In this document: one piece after another, positions 5,009 through 61,623 of the stretch
Layout of the letters: every line of letters starts with the position of its first letter
Position numbering within the stretch: position 1 is the first letter of the stretch
Assembly: GCA_963847705.1 (NCBI GenBank)
Contig: CAWKBC010000032.1
Location: 448,001-512,000 of the forward strand
Length of the DNA stretch: 64,000 bases
Origin: an uncultured Pseudomonadota bacterium
GTDB lineage: Bacteria; Myxococcota_A; Polyangia; Fen-1088
Direction: 5' to 3'
Translations under genes and position numbers: made by a program
The notes under the pieces: generated by a model
The model's input: only the letters and a program-made list of their open reading frames with translations
What the model was told of the DNA's origin: nothing
The model's database searches: none

Positions 5009-7811
5009 CTAGCGCGCCCCCTGGTCGACCCGGGCCGCGCGCCCCACGGTGGACGTCGCCAGCGGGTCGGGCCGCACCACCGCGATCGTCTCGCGCTTAG
5101 GATCGATGAACCGGCGCGCCGCGCGCGCGACATCGGGGGCGGTCACCCGCGCCAGCGCGGCCGGGAGTTGGCGGTAGGTCATGAGCGGAAGACCGTACGC
5201 CTCGTCGGTCGCGAGCGCATCAGCGATCGCCGCTTCTCCCCGCAACGCGAGCGCGCGCAGACCGGCGAGACGGCGCGCGGCGCGCTCCACCTCGGCCGCC
5301 CCGACGCCGCCGGCCGTGACCTCGGTGAGCGCCGCCCGGAGCGCGGCCACCACGGCGTCGACGCTGGCCGGGGCGCAGGTGACGGTGACCGCCAGCTCGC
5401 CCGGATCGACGCCCGTCGCGGCCGAGGCCCCGAAGCGGTAGACGTTCGGCGTCGTCGCCAGCCCGCGTTCGACCGGACCGTCCCGGGCGTTCAACACCTC
5501 GGCGAGAACCTCGAGCGCCGCCCGATCGGCGTCGCGCACCGGCGCCCCGGGATAGCCGAGCACGATCTCGGCGACGTCCCTGTTCGTGGTGTGAAAGAGA
5601 GCCACCGGCTCGCCGTGGGCCGGTTCGGGCGGCGGCTCAGGCGGGGACGGACCGGCAGCAGCGTCGGCGAACAGCGCCGTCAACGTCGCCACCGCCTCTG
5701 CCGGATCGACGTCGCCGACCACCGAGACGACCAGGCGGGAAACCGGATAATGACGGCGGAAGTGAGCGAGGAGGCGGACCCGCCCCAGCGCCGCCAGCGA
5801 AGCGGGGCTCCCCAGCGGATCGAGCCGAAAGGGATGGCCGGGCCAGAGCGCCTCACGAAACAGACGCCGGGCCGCCCCCGCCGGATCGCCGTCGGCGGCG
5901 CGCGCCCGATCGACCACCACGCGCCGGCTTCCGTCGACTTCGCCGGCCGGGAAGCTGGGGCGCAAGAGGCAGTCGGCGAGGAGCTCGACGCCCCGCGACC
6001 AGGTGCCGGGCAAGAATTGTCCCCGCAACCCGAAGTGGCTGCGATCGGAGAAGCCGGAGAGCACGCCGCCCGCGGCCTGCACCTCGGCCGCGATCTGCGG
6101 CGCCGCGCGGGTGCGCGTCCCGCGATCGAGCAGCGCCGCGATCAGCGCGCCGGCGCCATTCGAGGCAGCGTCCTCGGCCCGGGCGCCGCCGGCCCAGGCC
6201 GCCTCGACGGCGACCATCGGCGCGGCGCGATCGCGCAGCACGAGGATGCGCACCCCCGAGGGGGCGACCGCGCGGACGACATCGCCCCCGCCCTCCCCGC
6301 GCGCCACCGCCGCGCCTAGGGGCGGCCTGGAGCTCCGCGCCGCCGCGCCGGCGACCATCGCCTCCAGCCGGGCCGATTCGGCCGAGGCCGCGGTGGGAGC
6401 GGCGCCCGGGTCGAGAACGGCCAGCGTGAGGGCCTCCGGCCTCAGCAGCCTGGCCGCGGCCGCGCGCAGCGCCGGCGGAATCGAACGCCAGCAGGCTCTC
6501 CCGGTACCGACGGTCGTCGTCGTCGTCCGCGATGGCGGAGGCGAAACCGAGTCGTCGCGCCCGCCCCTCGACGCCGTCGGCGGCGCGGCCGAGATCGCTC
6601 TGCAGCAGGCCCCGCACCCGGGCGAGCTCGTCGGCTGGGACCTGGTCGCGCCCGAGCCGCAGCGTCTCGTCGATCGCACCCTGGGTCGCCGCCTCGATCC
6701 GCTGCGGCGCGGGCGCCAAGATCAGCTCGAGCAGCGCGGCGCCGCGCGCCCGGAAGGTCAGCCCGTGCACGGCGGTGACGACCTGCCGGTTGTCGGCGAG
6801 CTCGCGGGCGAGGCGTGCGTCGCTGCCGCGGGTCAGCAGCGCCGCGATCAGATCGAGCGCGGCGGCGTCCTCCGGGCGCGGCGCCAGGACCCGGAATCCG
6901 AGCGCCACCTGCGCCTCGAGCCCCGCCGCCGTCGACACCAGCGCGCGCGGCGCCGATGGGGGGAGAGCCGCGGCGACCGCGTGCACCGGAGCACGCCCGC
7001 GGGGAACGGCCGCGAACGCGCGTGCCACGGCCTCGCGGGCGCGGTGCGCGTCGACGTCTCCCACCACGACGACCGTCATGTTCGGGCCCAGATACGTCTC
7101 GGCGAAATGGGCCGCCAACGCTTCGCGGGTGAACGCCGCCACCGCCTCCGGATTGCCAAGCAACGGACGACCGTAGGCGTCGCTCGCAAAGGCCCCGGCG
7201 CGCAGCAGCCCACTCGTCGCGCGGGCCGGATCGATCGCCTCGCGGGCGATCTCGGCGACCGCCAACTTCTTCGCCCGGGCGAGCTCGGCCGCCTCGAAGG
7301 TCGGCGCGGTCAGGGCGTCCCCCAGGACGTCGAGCCCGAGGTCGAGAAACGGCGCGGCCAGCGTCGCCTGGTAAACCGTCTCGTCGAGCCCGGTCCAGGC
7401 GCCGACCGTCCCGCCGACGGCCTCGATCTCGCGCTCGCCCGCCCCCGGGGCGCGCCGGCGCGTGCCCCGAAAAACGAGATGCTCGTAGAGGTGCGCGGCG
7501 CCCGCCAGCGCAGGGGGGTCGTCGGCCGCCCCCGAGGCGACCCAGACCTGCAGGGCGACGACCGGCGCGGCGTGGTTCTCCTCGACGACGACGCGCACGC
7601 CGTTGTCGAGCCGCGCCTCGGCGCGCGTCCCCGGACCGCCCATCATCATGGGGGTCGTGGCCGTGGCCATCGACCCTTCGGCGACGGTTCCGTCGGCGGC
7701 AGGCTGACTGGGATTCCCGGCGCCCCCGAGCGAGCGGCAACCCCCGAGAGGAACCACCAAGAGCAACGACGCGAAGGGGAGCGCCGCGTGAGCGAGAGAC
7801 ACGGATTTCAC
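5009..7811 (-). CDS. M16 (pitrilysin-family) zinc peptidase, probable lipoprotein; +1 frameshift near 6478-6482
   Basis: HLYEH (HxxEH) and RLDNGVRVV in ORF 5853..7979; second M16 half in ORF 5009..6679. Deleting one base in GAATC joins them as LAFDPPALR. LGGC lipobox. Confidence 0.87.
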
Positions 7812-7894
7812 GAGCGGCTGCGAGGTTACCACCAATACAGGGCATGCAAAGCTGCGTGCCCCGTTCCGTGCCATGGTTGTAGTCTCTGGGACGG

Positions 7895-10306
7895 ATGAAG
7901 CGACGGGCGTTCTTGCGTGGGGCCAGCGCGGCAGGTGGAGCGGCGTTCGCTTCGCGGCTCTGGCGTCCGGCTGAGGCATCGCGCGCAGGTGCGCTCGAGC
8001 GCGCGCTGGAGCGGCTGCAGCAGGCGCGGATCGCGGTGGCGGCGCGGCTGGCTGCGCCCGATGCCGCCAGCGCCGTTCCCGCCGAGCTGATGCTTGGGCG
8101 CAACGGCTCGGCGCGCCGAGAGCTCGCCGGCGGCACGCTGGCGCTGCGCGCGGCGCCGGTCGCCGGGAGCCACGACGCCGTCGAGCTCTTCGTCACCTTT
8201 CGCGCCAAGACGCGCGCCCCGGCCGGCACCGTCAGCCTGGCGCTCGAGCTCGACGCCTGGTCCCTCGACAACTACGTGATGCTCCCGGGTGCCTGCTACG
8301 CCGGGAATCGGTTCGAGTCGCGCTTCGTCGGCTACCCGCCCCTGCTGACCGAGCCAGCCGACATCGGTCCGCACGTCCCGCCGATCGTGACCGACATCCC
8401 CAGGCTGAACTTGCACCGCGGAACTTCCAGGCTGGAGATCGCCGCGGCCGATCTGGCGACGCCGGCGGTGGCGGTGTTTCTTCCGGCGGAAAAGCTCGGC
8501 CTCATCCTGCTGGTCGATCTGGCCACCTCGGTCGGGCGGACCGGACTCTCCGTGGCCGAGAGCGACGATCGCGCGCGCGCCTCGATCGCCGCCTCGACGC
8601 CCTTCGTGCACGAGGGACACCGCGCCGAGGGCGCGCCGGGACCGCGCGAGCGACCGATGCCATCCAGGCCCGGCGCGTCGATCACGCTCCGCGCGCGACT
8701 CCACGCCTTCGCCTGCGAGGAGATCGGGCAGCTCACCGAACGCCTGTTCGCCCTGCGCAAGGCGCTCACCGGCCCCACCGCCCGCGCGCACACCTTGCCA
8801 TTTTCAGCGGCGTTCGCCGCGCACGAGGCGCGGGTCAACGCGCGTTTCGTCGAAAAGCTGGGCTTCTTCGCGCTCGGCGCGCGCGACAGCGCCTATTCGA
8901 TCTGGCAGACCGGCTGGGCCGGCGGCTTCGGCCAGACGCTCCCCCTGCTGGCCGCGGGCGGAAAGCAGTCGCGCACCCGCGCGCTCGAGACGATCGCCTT
9001 CGTCGTCGAAGGCGGGCAGGCCCCCTCCGGTTTCTTTCACGGCGTCTCCGATGGCAAGACCTGGTACGACGACGGCTTCACGGCGCCCCTGCCACCTGCG
9101 CCCGCCGACGCCTGGCCGCCGCGCGCGTCGCCCTACCATCATCCGCGCTGGCACCTGGTCCGGCGCAGCGCCGACGCGCTCTCGCTGTTGGTGAAGCAAC
9201 TCGCGCTGCTGGATCGGCAGGCAGCGTCGGCGGACCGGACTGCCGAGCCGCCCGCCCCGGTCGATCCGGCCTGGGCGACGTCGGCCCGGCGCTGCGCCGA
9301 CGCGCTCGCCCACCTCTGGGGGAGGCATCGACAGTTCGGGCAGTTCGTCGACATCGCCAGTGGCGAGCTGATCGTCGGCGGCTCCTCCTCGGCGGCGATG
9401 GCGCCCGCCGCACTGGCGCACGCCGCTGCTTATTTCAAAGAGCCGAGCTATCTGCAGGTCGCCGAGGAGTCGGCGCTGCACTACTTCGAGCGTTTCGTGC
9501 AGGCGGGCCTCACCTGTGGCGGCCCGGGTGACGTGCTCCAGTGTCCCGACAGCGAATCGGCGGCCGCGCTGCTGGAGTCGTTCGTCACCCTTCACGAGGC
9601 GACCCGCGACCTGGCGTGGATCGCGCGTGCCCGTGCGGCGGCCCATCTGCTGGCGAGCTGGGTCATCTCGTACGACGCCCCGCCCGCCGGCCGCGGCTGC
9701 CCGCCGCCGGGGCCGCTCCGCGCCACCGGGGCCGTCTTCACCGACGCCCAGAACCGCGGCGGCGCCCCCGGCTACGTCCTGTCGTCGGGCGCCGCGCTGT
9801 TTCGCCTCTATCGTGCGACCGGTGACGTCGCCTGGCTGGAGCTTCTGCGCGACACCGCCCACAACCTGGCGCAGTACCTTCCTCGCGCCGGCGACCTCGG
9901 CCGTCCGGCGGGCGCCGGGGGGCGTGATTCGGACGACTGCTCCCGCGCCGACAGCTCCGACTGGCTGGTCGACAACGGAAGCGTGGTGCCCGCGGCCGGC
10001 CTCTACGACGCGATCGCCCTCCTCACCTATACGGAGCTCCCCGGCGTTTACGCGCAGACCGACGCGGGCTTCGTGTTCGCCTTCGATCACGTCGAGGCGC
10101 GGGTGAAGGAGCGCCTCGGCCACCGGTTGGTGGTCGCGTTGCGAAATCCGACGGCGACCGAAGCGACCGTGCGTCTTTACGCCGAGAGCGCCGACGACGC
10201 CGCGCTCCCCTTGCTCCCCGACGCCATCCTCGGCGCACCGACCGCGGTCGTGCCGCCTGGAGCGACCGTCGAGGTCGCGATGCCGCCGCTGACCGCGCGC
10301 CGCTGA
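7895..10306 (+). CDS. Tat-exported hypothetical protein, probable (alpha/alpha)6-barrel glycosidase-like fold
   Basis: MKRRAFL twin-arginine signal; helical repeats such as LHEATRDLAWI and LYRATGDVAWL. Fold is inferred. Confidence 0.7.
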   Translation: MKRRAFLRGASAAGGAAFASRLWRPAEASRAGALERALERLQQARIAVAARLAAPDAASAVPAELMLGRNGSARRELAGGTLALRAAPVAGSHDAVELFVTFRAKTRAPAGTVSLALELDAWSLDNYVMLPGACYAGNRFESRFVGYPPLLTEPADIGPHVPPIVTDIPRLNLHRGTSRLEIAAADLATPAVAVFLPAEKLGLILLVDLATSVGRTGLSVAESDDRARASIAASTPFVHEGHRAEGAPGPRERPMPSRPGASITLRARLHAFACEEIGQLTERLFALRKALTGPTARAHTLPFSAAFAAHEARVNARFVEKLGFFALGARDSAYSIWQTGWAGGFGQTLPLLAAGGKQSRTRALETIAFVVEGGQAPSGFFHGVSDGKTWYDDGFTAPLPPAPADAWPPRASPYHHPRWHLVRRSADALSLLVKQLALLDRQAASADRTAEPPAPVDPAWATSARRCADALAHLWGRHRQFGQFVDIASGELIVGGSSSAAMAPAALAHAAAYFKEPSYLQVAEESALHYFERFVQAGLTCGGPGDVLQCPDSESAAALLESFVTLHEATRDLAWIARARAAAHLLASWVISYDAPPAGRGCPPPGPLRATGAVFTDAQNRGGAPGYVLSSGAALFRLYRATGDVAWLELLRDTAHNLAQYLPRAGDLGRPAGAGGRDSDDCSRADSSDWLVDNGSVVPAAGLYDAIALLTYTELPGVYAQTDAGFVFAFDHVEARVKERLGHRLVVALRNPTATEATVRLYAESADDAALPLLPDAILGAPTAVVPPGATVEVAMPPLTARR

Positions 10307-10333
10307 CCGCGCGACCTCTGCTAAGATTTCGCC

Positions 10334-12208
10334 GTGGCCACGGGCGGTCTTCTGTCGGTGCGGCTCGGGCAAATTCGGCGGCGGCTGCGCCTCCAGGCGG
10401 CACGCGAAGGGGCCATCGGGGGGGCGGCGCTGGCGATGCTCGCGCTGGCGGTCGGCGTGGCGCTCGCCCGCGGACGGGGCGGCGCACCGGGGGCCGAGGT
10501 GCTGGCGGCGCTGATTCTCCTCGGCGCCGCCACCGGGGCGATCGTGCGGGGCGCGCGGCGGATCCCGCTGGCACGCTGCGCCCGGCTGGCGGACGCCGCG
10601 CTCGACGGTCAGGATCGGCTGTTGTCGGCGCTCACCCTCGACACGGACGAGCCGTCGCCGTTCGTGCGGGCCCTGGTGGCCGACGCAGTTCGCCGGGCGG
10701 CGATTCTGATGCCGGACGCGGCGGTCCCCGCGCGTCGCCCGGCCGGGCTGCCGGCGCTGGGAATCGCCACGCTGGCGCTGGCCGGGGCGGCACTCTTTCC
10801 CACCTCTTCGCGCGCTGCCCGCGTCCCGCCGACGACGCCCAGCCCGGAGCGCCACGCGGCGATCCCCGCGGGGGCGCTCGACGCCGAGCGCGAGGTGGCG
10901 CGCGCCGCGGCCGAGGCGGCGGCCAGGCTCGGCGACGCGCGGCTGGCGGCGCTGGCGGCCGATTTCGATCGGGCGCTGCGCCGGCTGGCCAGCGGGACGT
11001 TGAACGATCCCGCGGCGCTCGATCTCCTGCGCGCGCTGGAAGCGCGCGCCTCCGAGGCGGCCCGGGCCGCGAAACGGGACGGTCAGGCGGCGGAGGCCGC
11101 TGCGCGCGCGCTGGAGGCGCACGCCGAGACACGCTCGGCTGGAGAGTCGCTGGCGCAAACCGGCGCGGGCACCGGCGACGACGCGCGGGCGTCCACCGCG
11201 CTGGGCGCCAGCGCGGCGGCCCACCCGGGCGAGACGGCGCGGGCGCTGGCGTCGGCCGCGGCGAGTCTGGCTGGCGCGGCGGGCAAGCAAGGATCGACCG
11301 GCGACCCGGCCGACGCCAGGGACCTGCCGCGCCGACTTTCGCGCGACTCTCCGAGCGCGGGGACCGCGCCCGAGAATGCCGCGCCCGACAGCAACAATCC
11401 CGAAGCGCGTCACCTGGAACAGCTCCGGCGCGAGCTGGACGCCGCCGCCTCGGCCTGCCGCACCGGCGATCCAGGCTGTCGGCGACGCGCCGAGGAGCGC
11501 GGGCGCGAGCTGGAACAGCTGAGCCGCCAGGGAGCCGCGCGAGATTCGCTGCAACGTCTCGAGCGCTCCGCCGAACAGCTCCGCGCCCGCGTCAGCCGCG
11601 GCGAGCTCGGGGACGGCGACGCGCAGGCCATGCGCAGCTTTGGGCGCGCCGCCGATGGGGAGGGCGCGGGGCCGAGCGGGACCAGCGATGAGGTGAGCGC
11701 CGGCGCCGGAGCTGCTGCGGGAAACCGCCAGGACGCGCCCTCGAGCCGGGCGAACCGTCTTGGGAATGCCGCCGATGGAGAAGAAGGCGGCGCTCGTGAA
11801 AGCAAGGGCGGCGCGGAGACCGCCGCCGCTTCCGCCGCGATGGCTGCGGAGGGGAGCGGCGCCTCCGACGACGAGACCGGGAACGGCAACGGAATCGGCC
11901 ACCAGCCGGGTGGCGCGCCGCTCGGCGCGCGCCGCGCCGAGACGGAGGCCAGTCCTGGAAGCGAGGCCCGCGACGACGTTCCGCTCCGCGACGGGGCCGG
12001 GCCCGGACGTGCCGAGGTGATCGGTACCGCCGCCGGGCGTGGCTTTGCCAGCCCCGGTTATGCGCGCGCGTTCAACGACTATGCCGCCGCGGTCGAAGAC
12101 GCGCTCGGCGCGACCGCGGTTCCCGAAGGAAAGCGCTACCTGGTGCGTCGCTACTTCGACCTGATCCGCCCGCGCCCGCCGGTGCGCGAGCCCAGGGGCA
12201 CCCGGTGA
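10334..12208 (+). CDS. Membrane-anchored coiled-coil/low-complexity protein of MoxR operons
   Basis: Three N-terminal TM segments; C-terminal VPEGKRYLVRRYF; GTGA overlap with moxR. Confidence 0.75.
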   Translation: MATGGLLSVRLGQIRRRLRLQAAREGAIGGAALAMLALAVGVALARGRGGAPGAEVLAALILLGAATGAIVRGARRIPLARCARLADAALDGQDRLLSALTLDTDEPSPFVRALVADAVRRAAILMPDAAVPARRPAGLPALGIATLALAGAALFPTSSRAARVPPTTPSPERHAAIPAGALDAEREVARAAAEAAARLGDARLAALAADFDRALRRLASGTLNDPAALDLLRALEARASEAARAAKRDGQAAEAAARALEAHAETRSAGESLAQTGAGTGDDARASTALGASAAAHPGETARALASAAASLAGAAGKQGSTGDPADARDLPRRLSRDSPSAGTAPENAAPDSNNPEARHLEQLRRELDAAASACRTGDPGCRRRAEERGRELEQLSRQGAARDSLQRLERSAEQLRARVSRGELGDGDAQAMRSFGRAADGEGAGPSGTSDEVSAGAGAAAGNRQDAPSSRANRLGNAADGEEGGARESKGGAETAAASAAMAAEGSGASDDETGNGNGIGHQPGGAPLGARRAETEASPGSEARDDVPLRDGAGPGRAEVIGTAAGRGFASPGYARAFNDYAAAVEDALGATAVPEGKRYLVRRYFDLIRPRPPVREPRGTR

Positions 12209-14171: not shown

Positions 14172-14181
14172 GGGGTCGGGC

Positions 14182-18683: not shown

Positions 18684-18698
18684 CCCCCCTTCACTCTT

Positions 18699-23843: not shown

Positions 23844-25094
23844 TCAGGCGTAAGGCGGCGCGCGCCTCGGCGACGGTGGCGCCAACCTGCCGAGCGTCGT
23901 CCGCAGCACGCGCATCGGCCCCGCCAGATGCCGCGCCAGCGCCGGCGCAGCGTAGGCGGCTCCCACCACGAAGCGAAACAGCGGCCCGAACGAGAGGGCG
24001 GTGACGGGCCCGATGAAGTAGGCACCCGGGACCGACGATTCGAAGTTCATCGACAGCGCGGGCCCGCGCTCCAGGCGCTTCAGGCGCCGGCGCAGCTCGG
24101 GATCGAGATAGGCGATGCGATCGACATCGGCCACGTAGCCGGTCCCCGCGATGACATGATCGACCTCGAGGTCGCTCTCCCCCGCGCCCTCCTGCCGGAT
24201 TCGGAGGCGGATCCGGCTGCCGATCCGTTCGGCGCCCACCAGGGTCGTGCGCACCACGAAGGGGACCTTCCCCTCGACGCGCTCCTGAATCCACCAGGGT
24301 GCCGCCGGGCCCAGGTGGTGCTTGACGAAGCGGATCCGCGGCCCCTCGGGCACGAAGTGGAGCGCCAGCGGCGCGATCTCGAGCGCCCGGCTCTTGAGCC
24401 CGTAACCCAACCCCGAGATGGGATTGCGCAGACGCGCCAACAGGGGACGGTCGCGCGGGGTGCGCCCGTGGAAGACACCCGCTGGGCCGCGCACCAGGAT
24501 CTGGGCCCGACCACCTGCCTCGTGGACCATCGCGCCGGCCTCGATGGCGGAGGCGCCGGCCCCCACCACCGCCACCGATTGACCGCGGAACCGCTCGAAG
24601 TCGGTGTGAACGAACGTGTGACTCGCCAGCTCCCCGGGGAGGTGCTGGAGGCACTCGGGCATGTGCGCGAGGTGGGTGAGGCCGGTGGCGAAGACCACCC
24701 GCCGGGCGCGCGCCTGTTCGCCATCCGCCAGGGTCAGCGCGAACCGTCCGTCCCCCAGCAGCTTGACGGTCGTGACCTCCTGCGCTTCGAGATCGGGGAC
24801 GAAGCGCTGCTGGATCGAGAGGCCGTAGGTCGCGAAAGACTCCATCGTGCACGGCTCGTGGTTTTCGAGGCCGTTGAGGTCGCACCAGGCGGGGAAGGTG
24901 TGCCCTTTCGCGGGGACGTAGATGTTGGTGGCGAACGCCAGCGATTTGAGGTTGATGCCGCGGGGCATGTCCCGCCAGAACTTCATCGGCGGCCCGAAGA
25001 TGCGGAGCTCGACCCCCAGCGCGCGAAGCTGCGCGGCGAGGGAGAGGGCGTAGGGCCCGGAGCCGACGATCGCTACGTCCGATTCTTGTGCCAC
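23844..25094 (-). CDS. FAD/NAD(P)H-dependent oxidoreductase (class B monooxygenase/pyridine-nucleotide-like)
   Basis: GSGPYA, ATG, GAGASA, AGTGY, FESSVPGAYF, FGPLFRFV; GGAGG RBS. Confidence 0.88.
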   Translation of the reverse strand: MAQESDVAIVGSGPYALSLAAQLRALGVELRIFGPPMKFWRDMPRGINLKSLAFATNIYVPAKGHTFPAWCDLNGLENHEPCTMESFATYGLSIQQRFVPDLEAQEVTTVKLLGDGRFALTLADGEQARARRVVFATGLTHLAHMPECLQHLPGELASHTFVHTDFERFRGQSVAVVGAGASAIEAGAMVHEAGGRAQILVRGPAGVFHGRTPRDRPLLARLRNPISGLGYGLKSRALEIAPLALHFVPEGPRIRFVKHHLGPAAPWWIQERVEGKVPFVVRTTLVGAERIGSRIRLRIRQEGAGESDLEVDHVIAGTGYVADVDRIAYLDPELRRRLKRLERGPALSMNFESSVPGAYFIGPVTALSFGPLFRFVVGAAYAAPALARHLAGPMRVLRTTLGRLAPPSPRRAPPYA

Positions 25095-25138: not shown

Positions 25139-26558
25139 TCACGGATCCTGCTTCGTCGGGCTGAGTCTCCGGTAGAGCAACCGCAGACCGGGCAAGAGCT
25201 CGGCGGCCGCGTGGACCACGCCGGGCGCCCAGTCGATCGGATTCCGCCGAAGCGTCCGCCGCCGTGAGGCGGTTCGCCCGGTACCAGGCTCGCCAGCGGG
25301 CGTACTCGGCGCTCGACATCGAGCGGCTGGCCCGCTGCGCGGCGAGCAGCAGCTGGAACACGAACCGATGCGCGTAGATCGTCGCGCCGTCGGTCGCGCC
25401 CTCGGCCGACGCCAGGCAGGCGCGCAGCGCGTCGGTATCTCCGATCGCGGCGTAGTAGACCGACAGCGCGAGCGGCAGACCCCGCGCGGTCTCGAACCCC
25501 ATCTGCCCATAGAAGCGGGGGTTCATGTCGATCACCTTCGCGCAATTCCCCTCGCGCAGGAACTCGACCTCGAAGACCCCGAAGTGCCGAAGCGCCCGGC
25601 AGAGGCGCAAGACCCCGGCCGCCAGGGCGGGATCGACCGGCGCCGACTCGAAGCAGAGCCCCAGCCCGACCGGCCGGGTGCGCTGGAAGACCTTGACGGC
25701 GCCACGGGTCGCCGACAGAGCGCCGCTGCGATCGACGAACCCGGTCAGCGAATAGACGCGCTCCGCCGCGAGGGGCAGGTAACGCTGAATCATCGGCTGG
25801 CTGACGTCTCCGAAGTAGGGCTCGAGCCCCGGCCGGTACGGCTGGCTGGCCAGGAACCGTCGGTAGGCCGGGAGCAGGCCGGCCGCCTCGTCCACCACGA
25901 TCCCCTTGGTTTGCCGGACCTGCCGGACCTGGGTCCGCACCTTCAGCAGCAGCGGAAAGGTCGCCTCGCGAGCGATGCGTGCGACGTCCGCCTCGTTCTC
26001 GGGAAACCAGCTCTCGAGTCCTTCGAGACCGACCGACCGGCAAGCCGCGAGGAGCTTTCGCTTGTCGAGCACGTCGACCATGGTCGTGATGCTGGGCTGG
26101 TAGAGATAGAAGTGCTGCTCGAGCTGTTCGAGATGAGCGGAGAACAGGAACGCCAGATCGTCGCTGGGCGCATAGAGGAAGTGCCGCGGCTCTCGGCGCC
26201 CGAACGCGAGGAGCCACTCCAGCAGCCGCTCTTTGTCCGGGACCGGCGGACAGGGGAGCCAGCGGGTCGCGTAGCGCGACCAGCGCGCGGGCGCCAGCCA
26301 CCCTTGCCCCGCCACCGTGACGGGGATTCCACGTGCGCCCAGCGCCCGCACCGCGGCCAGCGTGCCCCCGTAGGTCGGCATCAACGCCAGAAAGGGGACC
26401 GCCTCGCTGCGTTCGTGGCCTCCGGCACCGCCGGGCAGGCTGGGATTTTGGCTCAACGAAGGGATGCTCACGAGATTGTCACCTTCGGCGGAGGGGACCG
26501 CAACTGGACTGCCGGTTGAGGTTCGGGCGCCGGGTCGACCGGGATTGATCCGCCGCAC
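25139..26558 (-). CDS. ATP-grasp (carboxylate-amine/D-aspartate-ligase-like) protein; +1 frameshift near 25240-25244
   Basis: LAAVRALG, SRY, LDK, FPLLLK, IQRYLP, FEVEF, DMNPRF. Deleting one base in GATTC gives ...ASADPIDWAPG... ending at 25139. Start codon uncertain. Confidence 0.8.
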
Positions 26559-50398: not shown

Positions 50399-50466
50399 CC
50401 CCGCGTGGCGCACTTGCTTGCGAGCAACTGGAGCGTGGTTAGGTTTTTACCTAGGAGAAAACACCC

Positions 50467-50736: not shown

Positions 50737-50784
50737 TTGCCAACGCCGCCGGGCTTCGAGAACCTCGGGCCCGGCGGGAGTGGC

Positions 50785-52699
50785 GTGACGTCAGCTGAAG
50801 GTCACCCAACCACCGCCGAGCCCCCCCGGACCAAGGGCGTCGGCCGCCTGGGCCTGGCGGCGCTTGGAATCGTCTTCGGCGACATCGGCACCAGCCCCCT
50901 CTACACGCTGCGGGCCTGTCTGAGTGGGCGGGGGGTAGCCCCCTTCAGCTCGGCCGACGTTCTCGGCGTCCTGTCGCTGATCGTCTGGACGCTGACGCTG
51001 GTGGTGTCCCTCAAGTACGTCACCATCGTCATGCGCGCCGACAATCACGGCGAGGGCGGCATCTTCGCCTTGCTGGCGCTCCTCCCCGAGCGGCCGCGCG
51101 CCACCAAGGGCAGCGTGGTCGGAATCGTGGCCCTCCTGGTGATCGCGGGCGCGGCGTTGCTCTACGGCGATGGGATGATCACGCCGGCGATCTCCGTCCT
51201 CTCCGCGGTCGAAGGGCTCGAGGTGGCTGCGCCCTGGCTGAAGCCGGCGGTCTTGCCCGTCACCTGCCTGATCCTGGTGCTCCTCTTCGCCTTCCAGCGT
51301 CGCGGCACCGGCCGGCTCGGCCAGATCTTCGGTCCGATCATGGCGGTCTGGTTCGTGGTGATCGGCGCGCTCGGGGCGATCCAGATCGCCCAACATCCCG
51401 CGGTGCTGGCGGCGCTGGGGCCGCAACATGCCGTCCGCTACTTCGCCACCCACGGCGTCCGCAGCCTCTTCGTGCTGGGTTCGGTCGTCCTGGCCGTGAC
51501 CGGCGCCGAGGCGCTCTACGCCGACATGGGTCACTTCGGACCCGCCCCCATCCGCGCGGGTTGGTTCGCGCTGGTCATGCCCGCGCTGGTGCTCAACTAC
51601 CTGGGCCAAGGCGCGCTGATCCTGCGGGATGCAGCCGCCGCTCAGAATCCTTTCTTTGCCATGGCGCCGGCTGGTGCCGCGACCTACGCGCTCATCGGCC
51701 TTTCGACGGCCGCCACCGTCATCGCCTCGCAGGCGCTCATCTCGGGCGCCTTTTCCCTCACCAACCAGGCCATGCAACTCGGGTTTCTGCCGCCGGTGAC
51801 GGTGGTCCATACCTCCGGCGAAGAAGAGGGACAGGTCTACGTCCCCGAGGTGAACCTCGCGCTGGCCGTGGCCTGCCTCGCCCTGGTGCTCATCTTCCGT
51901 CATTCCAGCCGGTTGGCCTCGGCCTATGGCATCGCGGTCACCGGCACCATGGTCCTCACGTCCATCATCTTCTACGAGGTGGCGCGCACCACCTGGCGCT
52001 GGCCGTTGTGGAAGGCGGGCTCGCTGCTGGTCCTCTTTCTCTCGGTCGACCTGTCGTTCTTCGTGGCGAACCTCTTCAAGGTGGTCGACGGCGGCTTTCT
52101 GCCGCTCGGCGTGGGGTTGGTGCTCTTCCTCGGGATGGCGACCTGGAAGCGGGGCCGGCGCATCTTTCGTGATCAGATTCGAGGCCGATTCGCCGCCATT
52201 CGCCGACTTCCTGGCCGTTTGCCGGCGCTCCCCGGTGGCCCGAACGCCCGGCGTCGGCGTGTTCGTGACCGGCCACCCGGACGGTGTTCCGCCCGTCCTC
52301 CGCGCGCTGGTCGAGCGGGTGCGCGTCCTGCCCGAGACGGTGGTGCTCCTGACGATGGAGGTCTCCCACGTTCCGCGAATCACCCCGGGAGAAGGCAGCC
52401 GCCATGATCGGCTCGCCGAGGGGTTCCACCGGCTGGTCATCGCGCGCGGCTACCTGGACCAACCCGACGTTCCCGCGGCGCTGGCCCGCGCCTGCCGGAC
52501 CTGGTCCATTCCCATCGATCCGGAACGGGCGACGTTCTATCTCGGCCGCGCGACCTTCATTGCTTCGTCGGCCGGTCGCATGGGTCACTGGAGCGAGTCG
52601 CTGTTCGCCTTCATGGCGCGCAACTCGCGGCCGGTGACCGACGCTTTCTGCATTCCACCCGCCCGGGTCGTGGAGATCGACTCCCGCATCGATCTTTGA
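50785..52699 (+). CDS. kup: KUP/HAK/KT potassium transporter; +1 frameshift near 52176-52180
   Basis: GIVFGDIGTSPLY, DNHGEGG, ITPAISVLSA, EALYADMGHFG; C-terminal domain in ORF 51926..52699; deleting one T in GATTC joins the frames. Confidence 0.92.
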
Positions 52700-52758
52700 T
52701 GGTCGGCAATCTCGGCCCAGCATTGCCCTTGTCGGGCGCGTACCTAGGTTGCGGCTGC

Positions 52759-54876
52759 ATGCCAACCAAGCGCGCCCGAGGGACGACTGCTCCGACAACG
52801 CCAAAGGGCCAGGCCAGGCCGCCCAGCAAGACCGGTCGTGGTGGAGAGCCGCACCAGCTCGCCGAAACGCCGGCGCAGGTCCTCACCACGAATCAGGGCG
52901 TCCCCATCGGCGACGACCAGAACTCCTTGCAGGCGGTGAAACGGGGCCCGGTTCTGCTGGAGGACTTCGTCCTTCGGGAGAAGATCACGCACTTCGATCA
53001 CGAGCGGATTCCGGAGCGCATCGTGCACGCCCGCGGCTCGGCCGCGCACGGGTACTTTCAGGCCTACCGATCCCTCGGCAAGCTGACGCGCGCGGCGTTC
53101 TTGCAGGATCCCAAGAAGAGGACACCGGTCTTCGCGCGCTTCTCCACCGTGGCGGGCGGCGCCGGCTCCGGCGACACCGCGCGGGACGTCCGCGGCTTCG
53201 CGGTGAAGTTCTACACGGAAGAAGGAAACTTCGATCTGGTCGGCAACAACATCCCGGTGTTCTTCATCCAGGATGCGATCAAGTTTCCCGATCTGATCCA
53301 CGCGGTGAAGATGGAGCCGGACCGCGGGTTTCCGCAGGCCGCCTCGGCGCACGACACCTTCTGGGACTTCGTCTCTCTCCTGCCGGAGAGCATGCACATG
53401 CTGCTCTGGGTGATGTCGGACCGGGCCATCCCCCGGTCGTTGCGCATGATCGAGGGATTCGGGATCCACACCTTCCGCTTCGTGGACGACAAGGGGCGCT
53501 CGACCTTCGTCAAATTCCACTGGCGGCCGACCATCGGCGCCGCCTCGGTCGTCTGGGACGAGGCGGTGAAGCTCTACGGCGCGGATCCGGACTTTCACCG
53601 CCGGGACCTCTTCGAGGCGATCGCCAAGGGCGCCTTTCCCGAGTGGGAGCTGTCCATCCAGGCCTTCGACCAGAAGACCGCGGACAAGCTCCCCTTCGAC
53701 GTGCTCGATCCGACCAAGCTCATCCCGGAGGAGGTCATCCCCCTCGAGCCGATCGGCAAGATGGTCCTCGATCGGAACCCGGACAACTTCTTCGCCGAGA
53801 CGGAGCAGGTCGCGTTCCATCCCGGCCACGTCGTGCCGGGCATCGACTTCACGAACGACCCGCTCTTGCAGGGTCGTCTCTTCTCTTATCTCGACACCCA
53901 GCTCATCCGGTTGGGCGGCCCGAACTTTCACGAGCTGCCGATCAACCGCCCGAAGTGCCCGATGCGGAACTTTCAGCGCGACGGCTTCATGCAGATGGAG
54001 GTCCCCAAAGGGCGGGTCAGCTACGAGCCGAACAGCCTCGACCCCCAGGGGCCGCGAGAGCTCCCGGGCGGCGGCTTCACCACCTTCGCCGAGCCGCTGG
54101 CCGGCGCCAAGGAGCGCGTTCGCCCGGAGAGCTTCGCCGATCACTACAGCCAGGCGCGGCTGTTCTTCCGCTCGATGACCGAGCCGGAGCAGCGGCACAT
54201 CGTGAGCGCCTTCGCCTTCGAGCTGGGCAAGGTGGAGACGGCGGCGATCCGACGCCGGATGCTCGGTCACCTCGACATCGTCGACAAAGCGCTGGGGGAC
54301 GGCGTGGCGCAGGCGCTGGGGATGGAGGGTCAGGCCGAAAAGCTTCGTCCCGCGCAGGCCCCCATCGACTTGCCGCCCTCGCCGGCCCTGAGCCTCATCG
54401 GCAAGGCTGAAAAGACGCTGCAGGGGCGCAAGGTGGCGGTCCTGGTCGGTGATGGGAGCGATCCGACGCTGGTCGCCGCGCTGCGGGCCGCCTTGAAGAA
54501 GGAAGGAGCCGAGCTGGCGGTGGTCGCCCCGAAGATCGGAGGCGCCCGGGGCAAAGGGGGCCAGATGATCGCGGCCGACCAGGCGCTGGCCGGGGCGCCG
54601 TCGATTCTCTTCGACGCGGTGGTGCTCGCTCCCTCGGCCGAAGCGGCAGCCCTTCTGACCGAGCAAGCGGCCGCCATCGACTGGGTGAGAGATGCCTTCG
54701 GTCACCTGAAGGTGATCGGACACGTCGCGGCAGCCGCGCCTCTCCTCGAGCGAGCCGGGATCGCGGCAGACGCCGGCGTGATCGCGCTCGATGGCCCGAG
54801 GTCGATGGCGGCCTTCATCGCCGCGGCGAAGACCGCCCGGATCTGGGATCGAGAACCGAAGCTTCGCCATCCCTGA
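52759..54876 (+). CDS. katE: Large-subunit catalase HPII
   Basis: [32 protein letters not shown]; C-terminal DJ-1-like domain. Confidence 0.96.
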
Positions 54877-54964
54877 GGGGCGGGCCGCCTGCCCAGGCAA
54901 GCTCGGCCAGTCCGAATGAAGCGCGCCCGGGACAATTCCCTGGCGTGCGCGTCCTTTCTGCGTC

Positions 54965-55022
54965 ACCATCTAAGCAGATGGTAACCAGATGGTGTTCGGA
55001 TGGTCTCGGGATGGTCAGATGG
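54965..55022. promoter_or_regulatory. GATGGT repeat array (putative RHH operator)
   Basis: ACCATC at 54965, then GATGG(T) at 54977, 54988, 54999, 55010 and 55018. Confidence 0.75.
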
Positions 55023-55414
55023 CCGACCTAGAGAAGACCGAGAAGATCACGATCAACCTGGGTCTGGTCGATCTCGGGCAGATCGATCTGCTGGTGCAGG
55101 AAGGCTTCTACGCCAACCGCACCGACTTCATCCGCTCGGCAATCCGCACCCAGCTCGCCACCCGTGCCGCGGCGGTCGAGCAGAGCGTCGCCCGCAGGAC
55201 ACTGGTGCTGGGGAGCGCCCACTTCACCCGCGCGCAGCTGGAGGAGCTGCGCAGCGCCGGCCAGACGCTGCAGATTCGCGTGCTCGGTCTGGCCACCATC
55301 GCCGACGACGTCTCACCGAAGCTCGCGCTGCAGACAATTGCCTCGGTCGAGGTCCTGGGCGCGTTTCGCGCGACCGCCGAAGTCAAAGCGGCGCTCGCGT
55401 CGCGCATCGTCTGA
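55019..55414 (+). CDS. CopG/RHH family regulator
   Basis: EKITINLGLVDLGQIDLLVQEGFYANRTDFIRSAIR. Confidence 0.9.
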   Translation: MADLEKTEKITINLGLVDLGQIDLLVQEGFYANRTDFIRSAIRTQLATRAAAVEQSVARRTLVLGSAHFTRAQLEELRSAGQTLQIRVLGLATIADDVSPKLALQTIASVEVLGAFRATAEVKAALASRIV

Positions 55415-55452
55415 CAGCGCCGAGGGCCGAGAAGAGAAGAAAGGATCGTCCA

Positions 55453-56518
55453 ATGGACAAGGATCGACTGTCCCGAATGTACGAAGCCACCCGGCTGACC
55501 AGCCAATCACGATTCGCTGAGGCGGCAGCTCTCCTTCAGCGGGGCTCGGGTGGCGGCGGCCATCTGCCCAGCGTGCAAGCCCTGTTGTCTCGGCTGCCGC
55601 ACGGCTTCAACCGTCTGTCCGCGCCGGTGACGGAGCGTCGTCCTCGGCCCAAGGGCCCGGGCCTGTTCCTCGACCTCGACCACGCCAACGCGGCCGGCGC
55701 GCGCGCCTGCAAGCTGTATGTGCCCACCGGGTACGCCGGGCAGGCGGCGCCGCTGGTGGTGATGCTGCACGGGGGTACGCAAAACGCCGACGACTTCGCC
55801 GCCGGCACGCGGATGAACGAGCTCGGCGAGCGCCACGGATTCCTGGTCGCCTACCCGGAGCAGTCGCGCACCGCCAATCCCAAGGGGTACTGGAACTGGT
55901 TCCAACCCAAGGACCAGCAGCGCGGGAGCGGGGAAGCGTCGCTCATCGCCGGCCTCACCGAGCGGCTCATCGCCCAGTACGCCCTCGACACCCGGCGGGT
56001 CTACGTGGCCGGCTTCTCCGCGGGCGGGGCGATGGCGGCGGTCATGGCCGCCGCCTACCCCGACCTGTATGCAGCGGCGGCCGTCCATTCCGGCCTGGCC
56101 GCGGGCAGCGCCCACGACATCCCCTCCGCGTTCGCCGCGATGGCGCAGGGGGCGCCAACCCCCACGAGCCCGCCGGTCCCGTTCGATCATCTTCCATGGC
56201 GAAGCGGACCCCACGGTCAATCACGTCAACGCCGACGGCCTCGTCAGGTCCGTCCTCCCGGACGCCAGAGCTCGCCAGCGGCCGCTCTCGACCACTGGAC
56301 GGGTGCCCGGAGGCCACGGCTACACCCGGCGGGTCTACCCCGACCGCGACGGAACAGCGCTGGTGGAACAGTGGACGATCCATCATGCTGGGCACGCCTG
56401 GTCGGGAGGGAGCCCGGACGGCACCTACACGGACCCGCGGGGGCCCGACGCCTCGAGCGAGCTCGTCCGCTTCTTCGCCCAGCACGCCCAGCACGAGGTC
56501 CGGCAGCGGGCGGCCTGA
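55453..56518 (+). CDS. PHB-depolymerase-family esterase; +1 frameshift near 56182-56188
   Basis: VMLHGGTQ, WNWF, GFSAGG in the first frame; IIFHGEAD and GHAWSGG in the second frame; AAAGGA RBS. Confidence 0.88.
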
Positions 56519-56665
56519 GGCGGCGGCTCTCCTGCCAGAATGCGCCGCCGAACGTAAGGCATTCCCCCAGATGGGTAAGGCGGATCCCTAACTCGGCAGC
56601 GGATTGCGTACGGAATGCATCGGGGCCCTTGCGTACGCGGCAGGCGTTCCTATTTCCAAGTAGCG

Positions 56666-57028
56666 ATGACGGTTGTGATGCTGGTCGACGATGACGAAGG
56701 TGCGCGAGAGTCCCTCACGGAGCTTCTCGAAGAGACCGGCTATTCGGTCCTTCAGGCCGACAATGGCTCGACGGCGTGGCAGCTGTTGGAGGAGGTCAAG
56801 GGGAGGTGCGACATCATCGTGCTGGACCTGATGATGCCCACCATGAACGGATGGGATTTTCGCCGCAAGCAGCGGGGAGATCCCAGGTTCGCCGGCATCC
56901 CCGTGCTGCTGATGTCGTCCGGTGCTCACATCGCATCGGTGTCTGCCGAGCTGGAGGCCGCAGACTACATGTCCAAACCGGTGGAGATTGCGGATCTTCG
57001 GGAGAAACTCCGCAAGCACGCGGCGTGA
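56666..57028 (+). CDS. Single-domain response regulator
   Basis: LVDDD, LDLMMPTMNG, KP. Confidence 0.92.
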   Translation: MTVVMLVDDDEGARESLTELLEETGYSVLQADNGSTAWQLLEEVKGRCDIIVLDLMMPTMNGWDFRRKQRGDPRFAGIPVLLMSSGAHIASVSAELEAADYMSKPVEIADLREKLRKHAA

Positions 57029-57999
57029 TCGTCGTCGATTCGACCCGTGATCGCCCCGAGGCCGGCCCCGCGGGGGCTCGACAATTCCTGGGAGGATACG
57101 AGCTCGGTCAGCTGTTGGGGGTGGGCGGAATGGCCGAGGTCTTCAAGGCCGAATACAACCCCGTCCGCGGAGCTCGACGGACCGTGGTGGTCAAGCGCAT
57201 CCTTCCGCGCCACGCCAGCAACGCCGAGTTCACCAAGCTGTTCGTCGCGGAGGCGAAGATTCTGGGCCTCTTGAACCACTCGAATGTCGTCAAGGCTTAC
57301 GACTTCGGAGAGGAGAACGGCGTCCTCTTTCTCGTCCTGGAGTACGTCGACGGCCCCTCCATCGCCGACGCGATCGGAACCCTTCGAGAGCACGGCCGAG
57401 AGATGCCGGTCGCCGCGGCGGCACACTTTGCTCACGAGGTCTGCCTGGCGCTGGACTACGTTCACACCTTGAAAGGCGGGGACGGCGAGCCGCTGAACGT
57501 CATTCACCGGGACGTCACGCCGTCCAACATCCTTCTCACCCAGACTGGCGGCATCAAGCTTCTGGACTTCGGGGTGGCCAAGTACCGCGCCTCGCAGGTG
57601 AAGACCAGTGAAGGGTTCATCAGGGGAAAGGCCGCCTACCTGGCGCCAGAGACCCTGGAGGCGAAACCCTTCGACTGCCGGGTCGACATCTTCTCGCTGG
57701 GAATCGTTCTGCACGAGATGTTGACGCTGACCAGCCTCTTCGAATCCGACAACCACATGCTCACCTTTCGGAAGATTCTGGCCCTGCCGATCGAGCCTCC
57801 GTCGAAGATGCGCCCTTCCGTACCGGCGGAGCTGGACGCGATCGTCATGAAGGCCCTGGAGCGCGACCCCGCGCGCCGCTATCAGACAGCCGGCGACATG
57901 GCGGCCGATCTCCGACGGTTCGTGGTCGAAAATGGTCTCCCCGAGAACTGGAATGGCGCCTTCGTGCGCGCTCTGGTCGACCTCGAGACGCCGGGCTGA
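57025..57999 (+). CDS. Cytoplasmic Ser/Thr protein kinase
   Basis: GVGGMAEV, HRDVTPSN, DFG, YLAPE; GTGA overlap with the response regulator stop. Confidence 0.92.
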   Translation: MIVVDSTRDRPEAGPAGARQFLGGYELGQLLGVGGMAEVFKAEYNPVRGARRTVVVKRILPRHASNAEFTKLFVAEAKILGLLNHSNVVKAYDFGEENGVLFLVLEYVDGPSIADAIGTLREHGREMPVAAAAHFAHEVCLALDYVHTLKGGDGEPLNVIHRDVTPSNILLTQTGGIKLLDFGVAKYRASQVKTSEGFIRGKAAYLAPETLEAKPFDCRVDIFSLGIVLHEMLTLTSLFESDNHMLTFRKILALPIEPPSKMRPSVPAELDAIVMKALERDPARRYQTAGDMAADLRRFVVENGLPENWNGAFVRALVDLETPG

Positions 58000-58021
58000 C
58001 GGAAGGCCCAGGGCGGGCTGG

Positions 58022-58867
58022 TCAGAGGCCGAGGAGGATCTTCGAGACGTCGTAGAGAACGTCGCCCCGGCGGGGAACCGCAAGGACGGGGACGCGGGCG
58101 CGCAAGCTGGGCGCCCTGGCGATCTCGGCGGCCGCCTGGGCGTTGTACGCATAGGCCATCAAGGTGCGGAGATTGATGACGTCGTAGAGGTTGTATTCGG
58201 CAAACAGGCGCAACGCCCTGCGGTCCCCCTCCCGCCCGCGGCGAAACAGCTGGCAGGCGTCCCAACCGTCGATCCCCCGGAGATGCGCCGGCCGCGCCAG
58301 ATTCAGCGCACCGATGTCGCTCTCGATGCGCTTGAGCCCGCCATGATGGCCGAGGCGGGCCAGCAGGTGGCGGAGATCGATGTGACAGACAGGCGGGACC
58401 CAGTCCGGGAAAGCGCGTCGCAGGATCGGCAGGTCGAACGACAGCCCGTTGAACGTGACCAGGAGACTCCATTTGCGGGCCAGCGCCGGAAACAGCTGAA
58501 GATCGCGCCCCGCCAGCAGCAGACGCGGGCCCTCCCGGTCGAGAAAGCCGATCGCCGAGATGCCCTCGCGCCCCCACACGTCGTCGCCGGTCTCGATATC
58601 GAGATAGGCGGCGTCGTCCCCGAAGGCCTCGAAGAGCCGCCAGTGCTCGGAGGCCGGTAAGGTGGCGGCGAGCCGATCCACGTCGCCTCGGCTCAGAGCG
58701 GCCATCGCGTCGCCCACCGCGGCCCGCAGCAGCGGATCGGCGCGGTTGGAGACGACCGGACCGGGCCGCACCGCCAGGTCGGACCAGGTGGCGACGCCGG
58801 CGCACCAGAGTCTCCGCTCGCGCACGGGTCCCAGACCGGGAACGAGCTGGAACGTGCTCTGCAGCAT
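58022..58867 (-). CDS. YprB-like RNase H-fold (DEDD) exonuclease
   Basis: YLDIETG, VTFNG..FDLP, HIDL, GGLKRIE, YN..DV. Confidence 0.88.
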   Translation of the reverse strand: MLQSTFQLVPGLGPVRERRLWCAGVATWSDLAVRPGPVVSNRADPLLRAAVGDAMAALSRGDVDRLAATLPASEHWRLFEAFGDDAAYLDIETGDDVWGREGISAIGFLDREGPRLLLAGRDLQLFPALARKWSLLVTFNGLSFDLPILRRAFPDWVPPVCHIDLRHLLARLGHHGGLKRIESDIGALNLARPAHLRGIDGWDACQLFRRGREGDRRALRLFAEYNLYDVINLRTLMAYAYNAQAAAEIARAPSLRARVPVLAVPRRGDVLYDVSKILLGL

Positions 58868-58940
58868 GCACTGAACATACTATCAGTCCAGGCGGAAACA
58901 CCAGGAATCGCGCCGATCTGAAGCCGATCGGTCGCGGCCG

Positions 58941-59801
58941 TTACGGCCGGCTCAGCCCTTGCGCTGGCAGGGTGAAGGTCCCCTCCGTCGGGCCCAAGTT
59001 GACCGCCACGCGACCGACCGCGCCAGCGTCGAACCAAACCGTGCCTTCCAGCCGGTAGGGGACGACGAATGTCGGGGGGTGGCCCTGCTTCAGATCGTCG
59101 ACCGATTGCGCCGCGAGCTGTCGCATGGTCGCCAGGAGCTCGGACGGCTGCAACGACATCCGCGCGACGACCTGGAGATTGCCGGCCGGCGCCAGCTTGG
59201 GCGCCAGCAGCGAGGGGAGCTGGCCAGCCGCGCCCTCGAGGCCCGACACAACCAAGAGCGGCGCCGCCGCCGCGGCGTAGTCGGAGAGCGAATGAATGTC
59301 GTGCGACGAGGCCTGACACGCCGTGGGGTTCGACCCGGCGGCCGCACAGTTGGGAGCTTCCGCCGGGCAGAAGGTGACGCACGCGGCGCCGAGCTTCTGG
59401 TTGCTGGCCGCCGGGAAAACCGTCACCGCGGTGAGGAGGCTGCTGAGCGGCAGCGGCACCTGGTTCGGGTTCGTGACCTTGAATGAGACGTCGAAATCGA
59501 CGGCCATGGTGGCCGGCTCGGGCCGGGCGCCGAACAGCCCCTGACAGAGCAATGCTCCACCCCCGAGCGGCGCCGAGACCAGGTCGGGGCAGTAGTAGGC
59601 CGCCAGCTGCGTGGCCGACGGGGCCCGCGCCAGGTCGACCCGCTCGAACGTCAGGACCGGCGGCTGCACGCCCAGCCCGGCGCTCGCCGGCGGCGGCAAC
59701 CCGAGCGCGGCGCAGCCCGCCAGGGCCAAGACTGCGGCCAGGAGAGCGAGTGAAGCGAGGCGGGGGAGGATGGCCGGCGTGACCGATGATTTGTGGCGCA
59801 C
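58941..59801 (-). CDS. Lipoprotein with a LEA_2-like fold
   Basis: LAGC lipobox; FKVTNPNQVPLPL and VPYRLEG; start uncertain. Confidence 0.7.
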   Translation of the reverse strand: MRHKSSVTPAILPRLASLALLAAVLALAGCAALGLPPPASAGLGVQPPVLTFERVDLARAPSATQLAAYYCPDLVSAPLGGGALLCQGLFGARPEPATMAVDFDVSFKVTNPNQVPLPLSSLLTAVTVFPAASNQKLGAACVTFCPAEAPNCAAAGSNPTACQASSHDIHSLSDYAAAAAPLLVVSGLEGAAGQLPSLLAPKLAPAGNLQVVARMSLQPSELLATMRQLAAQSVDDLKQGHPPTFVVPYRLEGTVWFDAGAVGRVAVNLGPTEGTFTLPAQGLSRP

Positions 59802-59876
59802 GTGGATTCAATGACGGTAACCACGATCTTGGACGGGAGCTGCACAGTTCCAAGATGGCGTGGTTATAGTCCGCGC

Positions 59877-61304
59877 GTGGGCGACGACGACAAGCAAGCG
59901 ACCGAGAACAAAAGCGCCCGCGAAGAGGTCACCAAGCTCGGCAAGTTCATCCAGACCTACAGCGCCTTTCTCTCCAGCTTCGTGATCGGGGTGGCGGGGC
60001 TGGTGGCGACGTCCATCTGGCAGTACCGGCAGTCGCAGATCGCCTCCGCGCAGGCGCAATCGGAGCAGGCGATCGCCGCCACCAAGGCGGAGAACGACTG
60101 GCGCATCGCCCGGGCCGACATCCTGTCGAAGAACCTCACCGTGCTCTCGGGGCAAGGGCCGGGCAGCGCCGACCAGAAGTTCGGCGTGCTGCTCTCCCTC
60201 TCTCGCGGTCAGATCATCGATCCCGAGCTGGCCGTCTCGTACGCCATGGAGCTCGGCAAGCAGAACGCGACCTACATGCGGACCGTGCTGGAGGCGACCG
60301 GCAAGAAGAACTACGACCAGCTGGCCCAGGGATTCAAGCTGACCTGCCTTCAGCGATACGGCGTCCAGAAGGCGACCGATCTGTGCAAGGACGATACGCT
60401 GGTGCAGCGCTCGGACGCCATCGCCGAGGTGATCGTGGACGAGATGGACGCCACCAGCGTGGTGCACGCCGCCGCCGACAGCGGCCCGCTCTCCCTGCTT
60501 CGCGAGGAGCGGGTGGTGCAATCGCAGCCCGCCAAGTACGCCTGGTTGTTCACGCCGTATCTGCAGGATCTCTACGACCGCCGCCAGTGGCAGGACATTC
60601 AGCGCTTCGAGACCTTCTCCACCGGCGCTCACCTGGTGTCGTCGCTGGTGCTGGCGGCCGCGCGCACCGGTGAGCTGGTCAGCGCCGCCGAGGCGCCGCA
60701 GATCAACGGCTTTCACAGCGAGCACCGAAAATGGCTGGTCTCCTACCTGCTGGGCGCGACCTGCGGCGGTGACTGCCGCGGCAAGCTGGTCAACGCGATG
60801 CTGACCACCTACCTCGAGGCGGGGGGTGATTACGACGAGCCGTTCGGCCGCTTGCTCCTGCAGCCGCGGGCCCAGGCCGCGGCGACCTTCGCCCACCTGC
60901 ACATGCGCCTGCTCTGGTGCCAGGTCGGCGCGGAGGCCGAAGCGGAGTTTCGCGACAAGGTCCTCCTGCCGGTGTTGACCGCCGCGCTGGCAGACCCGAA
61001 GACGGAGGCGGCCGTGTTGGAGGACCTGGTCGGCCTCATCGCGCTCGTGCCCGAGCCCCCGGCCAGCGACGCCAGCACGACGACCGCCTGGAAGAAATTG
61101 TTCGACCAGCTCGATCACAGCAAGGAGCATCTGTCGCGCACCTACAACACGCGCCGGGCGGCCTCGGCACGCGAGCGCAGCAATCCGCCGCCCGCGATGC
61201 GGAAGGTGACCTTCTGCGGTCCCGACGGAACGCCGCCGCTGGCCGCCGAGGCGACCGCGGCGGCGGCGGCGAGCGCACCGGCGGCGAGCGCCGCCGGCCA
61301 GTGA
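59877..61304 (+). CDS. Hypothetical single-TM protein with paired cysteines
   Basis: TM segment FLSSFVIGVAGLVATSIW; long helical C-terminal region; coding-like codon usage. Confidence 0.75.
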   Translation: MGDDDKQATENKSAREEVTKLGKFIQTYSAFLSSFVIGVAGLVATSIWQYRQSQIASAQAQSEQAIAATKAENDWRIARADILSKNLTVLSGQGPGSADQKFGVLLSLSRGQIIDPELAVSYAMELGKQNATYMRTVLEATGKKNYDQLAQGFKLTCLQRYGVQKATDLCKDDTLVQRSDAIAEVIVDEMDATSVVHAAADSGPLSLLREERVVQSQPAKYAWLFTPYLQDLYDRRQWQDIQRFETFSTGAHLVSSLVLAAARTGELVSAAEAPQINGFHSEHRKWLVSYLLGATCGGDCRGKLVNAMLTTYLEAGGDYDEPFGRLLLQPRAQAAATFAHLHMRLLWCQVGAEAEAEFRDKVLLPVLTAALADPKTEAAVLEDLVGLIALVPEPPASDASTTTAWKKLFDQLDHSKEHLSRTYNTRRAASARERSNPPPAMRKVTFCGPDGTPPLAAEATAAAAASAPAASAAGQ

Positions 61305-61346
61305 AGCGCCACCCCGGGCGAGCTCGGGGTGACCGCCGCCGCGAGC

Positions 61347-61623
61347 TCAGCCGACCTTGTGCGCGCCCGCCGCTTGACCGACCGAGGCGGCGGCGTCGGC
61401 CAGGGCTTCCGGAGCGCGGTGGAGTCGCTCGCGGATGTCCTCCCGAAGCCCCCGGCCGGCCTTGGGCGCCAGCATGAACCCGATCCCCACGCCGATGAGC
61501 ACCCCGACGCCCAGCGTGCCCAGCGTTCCTGCCAGTGACGAGGCCGGAGAGCCCTTGGTCTCCAGGCCCAGCAGACCAAGTAGGTCGTCCTTATCCAGAT
61601 TCGAGAGAATCCTTGAGATTCAT
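61347..61623 (-). CDS. YtxH-domain protein; +1 frameshift near 61607-61611; missing from the ORF track
   Basis: GGGAGGAG RBS. Deleting one base gives MNLKDLSNLDKDDLLGLLGLETKG...GVGVLIGVGIGFMLAPKAGRGLREDI... Confidence 0.8.

Follow-up and report, generated by a model that had tools for sequence, protein, structure and literature searches.

Five genes in one stretch of DNA from an uncultured bacterium were each found to be interrupted by a single extra base at or beside the tetranucleotide GATC, which raises the question of whether the organism carries broken genes or whether its assembly has been misread. The window, meaning the whole stretch of 64,000 nucleotides that was analysed (positions 448001-512000 of contig C32), belongs to assembly G000, which comprises 6.10 Mb in 48 contigs with about 69% G+C, a largest contig of 943 kb, a completeness of 84.7% and a contamination of 6%. 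GATC is frequent in this assembly and shows no depletion (55,444 sites, observed/expected 1.01); the window holds 548 copies. The extra bases are very probably m6A-linked consensus errors of noisy long reads at GATC, with the genes probably intact, and it is nearly certain that they are an artefact of one cause or another. Judged from its relatives, the strain's own DNA would lack these bases. The interruptions and the genes that carry them are as follows.

6478..6482, plus strand: GAATC, an extra A/T inside GATC that shifts the frame of the M16 peptidase gene (alignment to relatives, codon-model scan)
5009..7979, minus strand: M16 peptidase gene, two frames split at the site, span 2971, start codon approximate (PF00675/PF05193 in both halves)
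25240..25244, plus strand: GATTC, an A/T added inside GATC, roughly 34 codons from the gene end (G001 alignment, codon-model scan)
25139..26558, minus strand: weakly ATP-grasp-like gene, span 1420, start codon approximate (NF009404, E 7.6e-6)
52176..52180, plus strand: GATTC, one extra base, shifting the frame of kup at a point between the membrane domain and the C-terminal domain (relatives, runs X2-X4)
50737..52699, plus strand: kup potassium transporter gene, span 1963, start codon approximate (PF02705 upstream and PF22776 downstream of the site)
56182..56188, plus strand: TTCGATC, an extra C at 56184 immediately 5' of an intact GATC, the flanking class (G001 alignment, runs X2-X4)
55453..56518, plus strand: PHB depolymerase-family esterase gene, span 1066 (PF10503)
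61607..61611, plus strand: GAATC, an A/T added inside GATC close to the start of the YtxH-like gene (G001 alignment, runs X2 and X4)
61347..61623, minus strand: YtxH-like gene, span 277 (PF12732, E 1.6e-8, below cut-off)

All five words were present where the sequence-only reading had placed them, each site carries one base more than the relatives, and the five gene spans are of the form 3n+1. Among the gene names it had given, M16, kup, PHB depolymerase and YtxH were borne out by Pfam, YtxH below the cut-off; ATP-grasp is weakly supported by NF009404, the gene at 25139..26558 giving no match to Pfam. The next gene after it (23844-25094, minus strand) encodes a flavin-dependent oxidoreductase (PF07992, PF13434).

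At the M16 site (6478) the window has CGGAATCGA where G001, G021 and G020 have CGGATCGA, the relatives reading GGATCG. Among the seven loci aligned there, G003 also shows a one-base gap, G041 and G023 show a gap where their sequence has diverged, and no clean gap is seen in G017. The window has GGATTCC at 25240 and GAGAATCC at 61607, against GGATCC and GAGATCC in G001. At the kup site (52176) a one-base gap was found in all five close relatives, with GATCGA in G017 and G016 and GATTGA in G001. The public runs X2-X4 come from related strains, mostly 88-95% alike to the window, and not from the source strain; the base at 52178 is absent from their contigs in 3/3 runs (in X2 in part of the depth only), that at 56184 in 3/3 runs, and that at 61608 in both runs covering it (X2, X4). 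When public runs were searched with sequence words, no run had half of them (best share 0.16), so no habitat is claimed.

Four of the five sites have a doubled A or T in GATC, which amounts to a single type of event read from either strand, the doubling of one strand's adenine. The codon-model scan, which recovers 46/56 known insertions, found no sixth frameshift in the window, and alignment to G001 found no further break in the source assembly within the part of the window that it covers, bases 1-23,800 being left uncovered. A randomly duplicated base would land in the GATC classes 13.8% of the time. Five out of five in one window thus has a probability of about 0.2 (0.71^5) given the genome-wide link described below, versus about 5e-5 (0.138^5) without it. 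The window lies above average, with 5 insertions per 548 GATC versus 40 per 16,093, the latter obtained with incomplete detection.

The genome-wide comparison was made with the relative G001, of which 2.51 Mb out of 7.1 Mb were compared and 1.70 Mb aligned to the source assembly at 89%. This alignment yielded 1037 short indels with clean flanks, of which a self-trained codon model assigned 584 to one genome, and the 453 that it left unresolved were dropped. The link to the motif had been proposed from the window, with a lack of GATC enrichment among genome-wide frameshift contexts over background set beforehand as its refutation; strong enrichment was found, both with and without a reference. 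Among 56 polarised single-base insertions in the source assembly, 23 create GAATC/GATTC (1.3 expected, p 5e-23), 2 add a base inside GATC in another way, 15 are at most 5 nt away from it and 16 are unrelated to GATC. The earlier statement that all insertions fall at GATC thus holds within the window and fails genome-wide. The flanking class is itself enriched, since the 15 within 5 nt were drawn from the 31 insertions remaining after the two inside classes (3.1 expected, p 5e-8). G001 has GATC at only 16/23 of the A-doubling sites.

Without a reference, a frameshift scan of the source assembly (46/56 known insertions recovered) gave 218 intragenic +1 calls, 53 of them with GAATC/GATTC within 10 nt versus 4.0 expected, and these words head unbiased k-mer lists of the +1 calls. 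The scan also gave 131 -1 calls, 8 of them near GAATC/GATTC versus 2.4 expected. When every GAATC/GATTC in the assembly was tested, 96 appeared frameshift-like, about 27 of these being background. AGAATC was frameshift-like at 56/1209 sites (4.6%) versus 82/22,422 (0.37%) for 11 sister words, and its calls in DNA aligned to G001 showed a net +1 in 17/17 cases. Doubling of G or C (GGATC/GATCC) stays at background, 10 and 9 of 2500. A-doubling is evenly spread (dispersion 1.27), other frameshift calls are clustered (6.77), and no correlation of A-doubling with local error density was detected (rho 0.11, p 0.36). Two other motifs were considered and rejected: a GANTC/CcrM-type motif, for which GACTC and GAGTC are at background (10/2500 each) and the relatives read GATC, and TCGA, for which TCCGA/TCGGA are at background. 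In the 120 remaining +1 calls no second motif was prominent (best p 3e-4 over all 6-mers).

The character of the breaks supports the earlier view that they are artefacts. GATC-linked breaks were found in tig, purD, recN, a bamA-like gene, citramalate synthase, ubiB, etfA and a mevalonate-kinase-family gene, chosen by eye from the 96 sites as examples and not as a rate. In tig, purD, recN, the bamA-like gene, citramalate synthase and ubiB, the two sides of the break match successive parts of one family model. A second copy of tig, purD, recN and the bamA-like gene is absent from the assembly, which at 85% completeness leaves their single-copy status uncertain. Furthermore, fusA is interrupted by a +1 lying three bases away from GATC, and the gene is unbroken in G001, which carries two more EF-G paralogues absent from the source assembly; that assembly may simply miss them. 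Insertions are not depleted in conserved DNA (17/56 versus 29.6%, p 0.88), and no excess amino-acid change was found around the breaks (nonsynonymous/synonymous 0.40 versus 0.455, p 0.23), a comparison with little power for very recent mutations. Breaks in housekeeping genes, free of decay and not avoiding conserved DNA, argue for an artefact. Natural bacterial indels are biased to deletions. The polarised indels here stand at 58 insertions to 16 deletions in the source assembly and 465 to 45 in G001, and most insertions are not homopolymer extensions; this insertion-rich, non-homopolymer spectrum fits a low-depth consensus from noisy long reads. From contig sizes and the error spectrum, nanopore is the likeliest platform, with older PacBio long reads possible.

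The modification that might mark GATC was then sought among the genes of the assembly. Two intact Dam-family genes (PF02086), each of 299 aa, score over the TIGR00571 cut-off, and a MutH homologue accompanies them.

C39:14813-18421 (L135/L145): orphan dam locus, with an HU-like gene on one side and an FKBP gene and fusA downstream
C21, L136:1375-3432: second Dam-family gene, a 132-aa PD-(D/E)XK nuclease (PF20472) and a convergent N4/N6 methylase
C30:32349-33002 (L162:2349-3002), minus strand: stand-alone MutH homologue of 218 aa beside serC

The orphan Dam has M.DpnII-1 as its best solved match (E 2.5e-63). In alignments with M.DpnII-1 and with the Dam of E. coli it keeps FxGG, DPPY and the NGLxR...P segment, the last of which we take to be the GATC-recognition residues of Dam/M.DpnII. 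Both genes resemble the Dam/M.DpnII-1 family in scoring over the curated cut-off and in aligning over catalytic and recognition segments; they differ in scoring 170 and 160, far under the equivalog cut-off of 441 for E. coli Dam, and one is an orphan while the other sits in a cassette. This second cassette appears compact, DpnII-like and restriction-modification-like. The orphan Dam was matched in 22/26 genus genomes (four at 44-49% identity), and in G001 its region keeps the same gene order, with a protein 96% identical. An N6/N4 methylase domain also occurs inside a 974-aa open frame at C10:191981-192913 (L137).

The earlier list of candidate marks (m6A, m5C, m4C, phosphorothioate) was narrowed in favour of m6A. 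In this 85% complete assembly, the C5 methylase family PF00145 gave no match (control matched 9/14), dndC and dndD gave none (controls matched only below cut-off), and the dndE search found no match in any control. Since adenine is the doubled base, Dam-family genes are present, and neither an m5C methylase nor dndC/D was found, the modification narrows to m6A. The mark is best read as G(m6A)TC, the specificity of the Dam proteins being predicted by homology.

In the E. coli model, MutH depends on methylated GATC and cuts just 5' of its G. The MutH homologue of this genome matches MutH over its full length, keeps the DFxxLGVELK motif and gives E 6.6e-41 to solved MutH, with only a weak match to Sau3AI. 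It falls under the equivalog cut-offs (185.7 < 243; 159.1 < 229.9). Two mutL genes were found, one of which (C29:280768-282537) keeps DQHAAHER while the other (C10:184051-185955) is without the motif; SeqA was not found in the assembly. The set thus resembles the E. coli Dam/MutH mismatch repair system in having an orphan Dam and a full-length stand-alone MutH homologue, and differs from it in a MutH below equivalog cut-offs, in the lack of a SeqA match and in two MutL, one with DQHAxxER. The MutH family was found in 24/26 genus genomes and 28/81 class genomes, all-or-none within most families. The literature search returned no account of a conserved orphan Dam paired with a MutH homologue for this group; apart from this pairing, the analysis offers no lead of biological interest.

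With a MutH homologue at hand, and a second Dam gene adjoining a PD-(D/E)XK nuclease, real and recent +1 mutations at GATC have to be weighed, for instance through faulty repair of MutH nicks or through a GATC restriction nuclease. Some insertions lie directly 5' of G, as at 56184, which is the MutH cut position. Run X1, in which 7/8 listed pieces are identical to the window, has no piece spanning any of the five sites, so that it leaves room for such mutations. The main form of the insertions, however, doubles A, away from the MutH cut, and this doubling is tied to the two bases on its 5' side. Moreover, housekeeping genes are broken, conserved DNA is not spared, no decay accompanies the breaks, and both assemblies are insertion-rich overall. 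Real mutation is therefore very unlikely, and it is just as improbable that the lineage's Dam/MutH system drives a GATC frameshift mutagenesis knocking out dozens of genes, housekeeping ones included.

The dependence on 5' context suggests in turn that AGATC might be misread whether methylated or not. Frameshift-like GAATC/GATTC are concentrated after CA (38/437), GA (15/479) and TC (14/785), and A-doubling is absent after most other pairs. Yet the excess requires a complete GATC, words with an incomplete one being near zero (AGAATG 1/676, AGAATT 1/347, AGAATA 0/154), and insertions also cluster on either side of an intact GATC; the probability that sequence context by itself produces the artefact is put very low. 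Slightly less improbable, though still far from likely, is an artefact in which GATC bears m4C, m5C or a phosphorothioate instead of m6A. An N4/N6-family methylase of unassigned specificity adjoins the second Dam gene, the assembly is incomplete, the dndE search was silent in its controls, and m5C in GATC reduces read accuracy in S. aureus, according to the passages available from PMC11610603. Against such marks stand the doubled A with G/C doubling at background, the missing matches to PF00145, dndC and dndD, and the conservation of the orphan Dam across the genus.

The m6A-linked error would arise as follows. A Dam-family enzyme would N6-methylate the adenine of GATC in vivo; the methyl group would disturb the signal from which bases are called, leading the basecaller to write AA or to place a spurious base close by; and the error would win the consensus at roughly 1-3 in 1000 GATC sites. 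This class of artefact is already known. The retrieved parts of earlier reports state that default basecallers place about 70% of consensus errors in Dcm motifs (CCWGG) (PMC6591954), that modified motifs give rise to strand-specific errors in R10.4.1 reads, GATC being the dominant motif in two species (PMC11610603), that PCR removes motif errors, ambiguous positions falling from 2357 to 44 (PMC11610573), and that false calls occur no more than 5 bp from methylation motifs, most often from GATC (bioRxiv 10.64898/2026.01.14.699587). As in these reports, insofar as their text was available, the errors described here gather in or within about 5 bases of a motif for which the genome carries a methylase gene; the motifs reported include GATC. 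Unlike the errors in the same texts, which are for the most part substitutions and come from cultured isolates with reads available, those of the present genome are +1 insertions in a metagenome assembly only. Nor is there a clear A/G substitution asymmetry at GATC relative to G001 (425 versus 409), a comparison that is uninformative because both have Dam. The passages found by the literature search, with supplements outside its scope, stress substitutions and include none that names GATC read as GAATC, and the exact GAATC form with its 5'-CA/GA context may be undescribed.

Read as m6A-linked errors, at least 40 to 70 genes of this assembly, including fusA, tig, purD, recN and the bamA-like gene, are not to be called pseudogenes, and gene-loss and completeness calls on such genomes would be biased. 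The error footprint would also serve as a free, indirect sign of GATC methylation in an uncultured lineage, in keeping with the conserved orphan Dam and the MutH homologue.

Errors of other kinds were seen alongside. Over the aligned 1.70 Mb, +1 insertions are about 8-fold more numerous in G001 than in the source assembly (465 versus 58) and fall mostly away from GATC; G001 also shows a weaker GATC signature (AGAATC 14 versus 1.1 expected). In the source assembly, frameshift clusters mostly unrelated to GATC occur in C4 (22 in 34 kb), C11, C3, C10:102777-105545 and C27:357589-358323, and these are likely poorly covered stretches.
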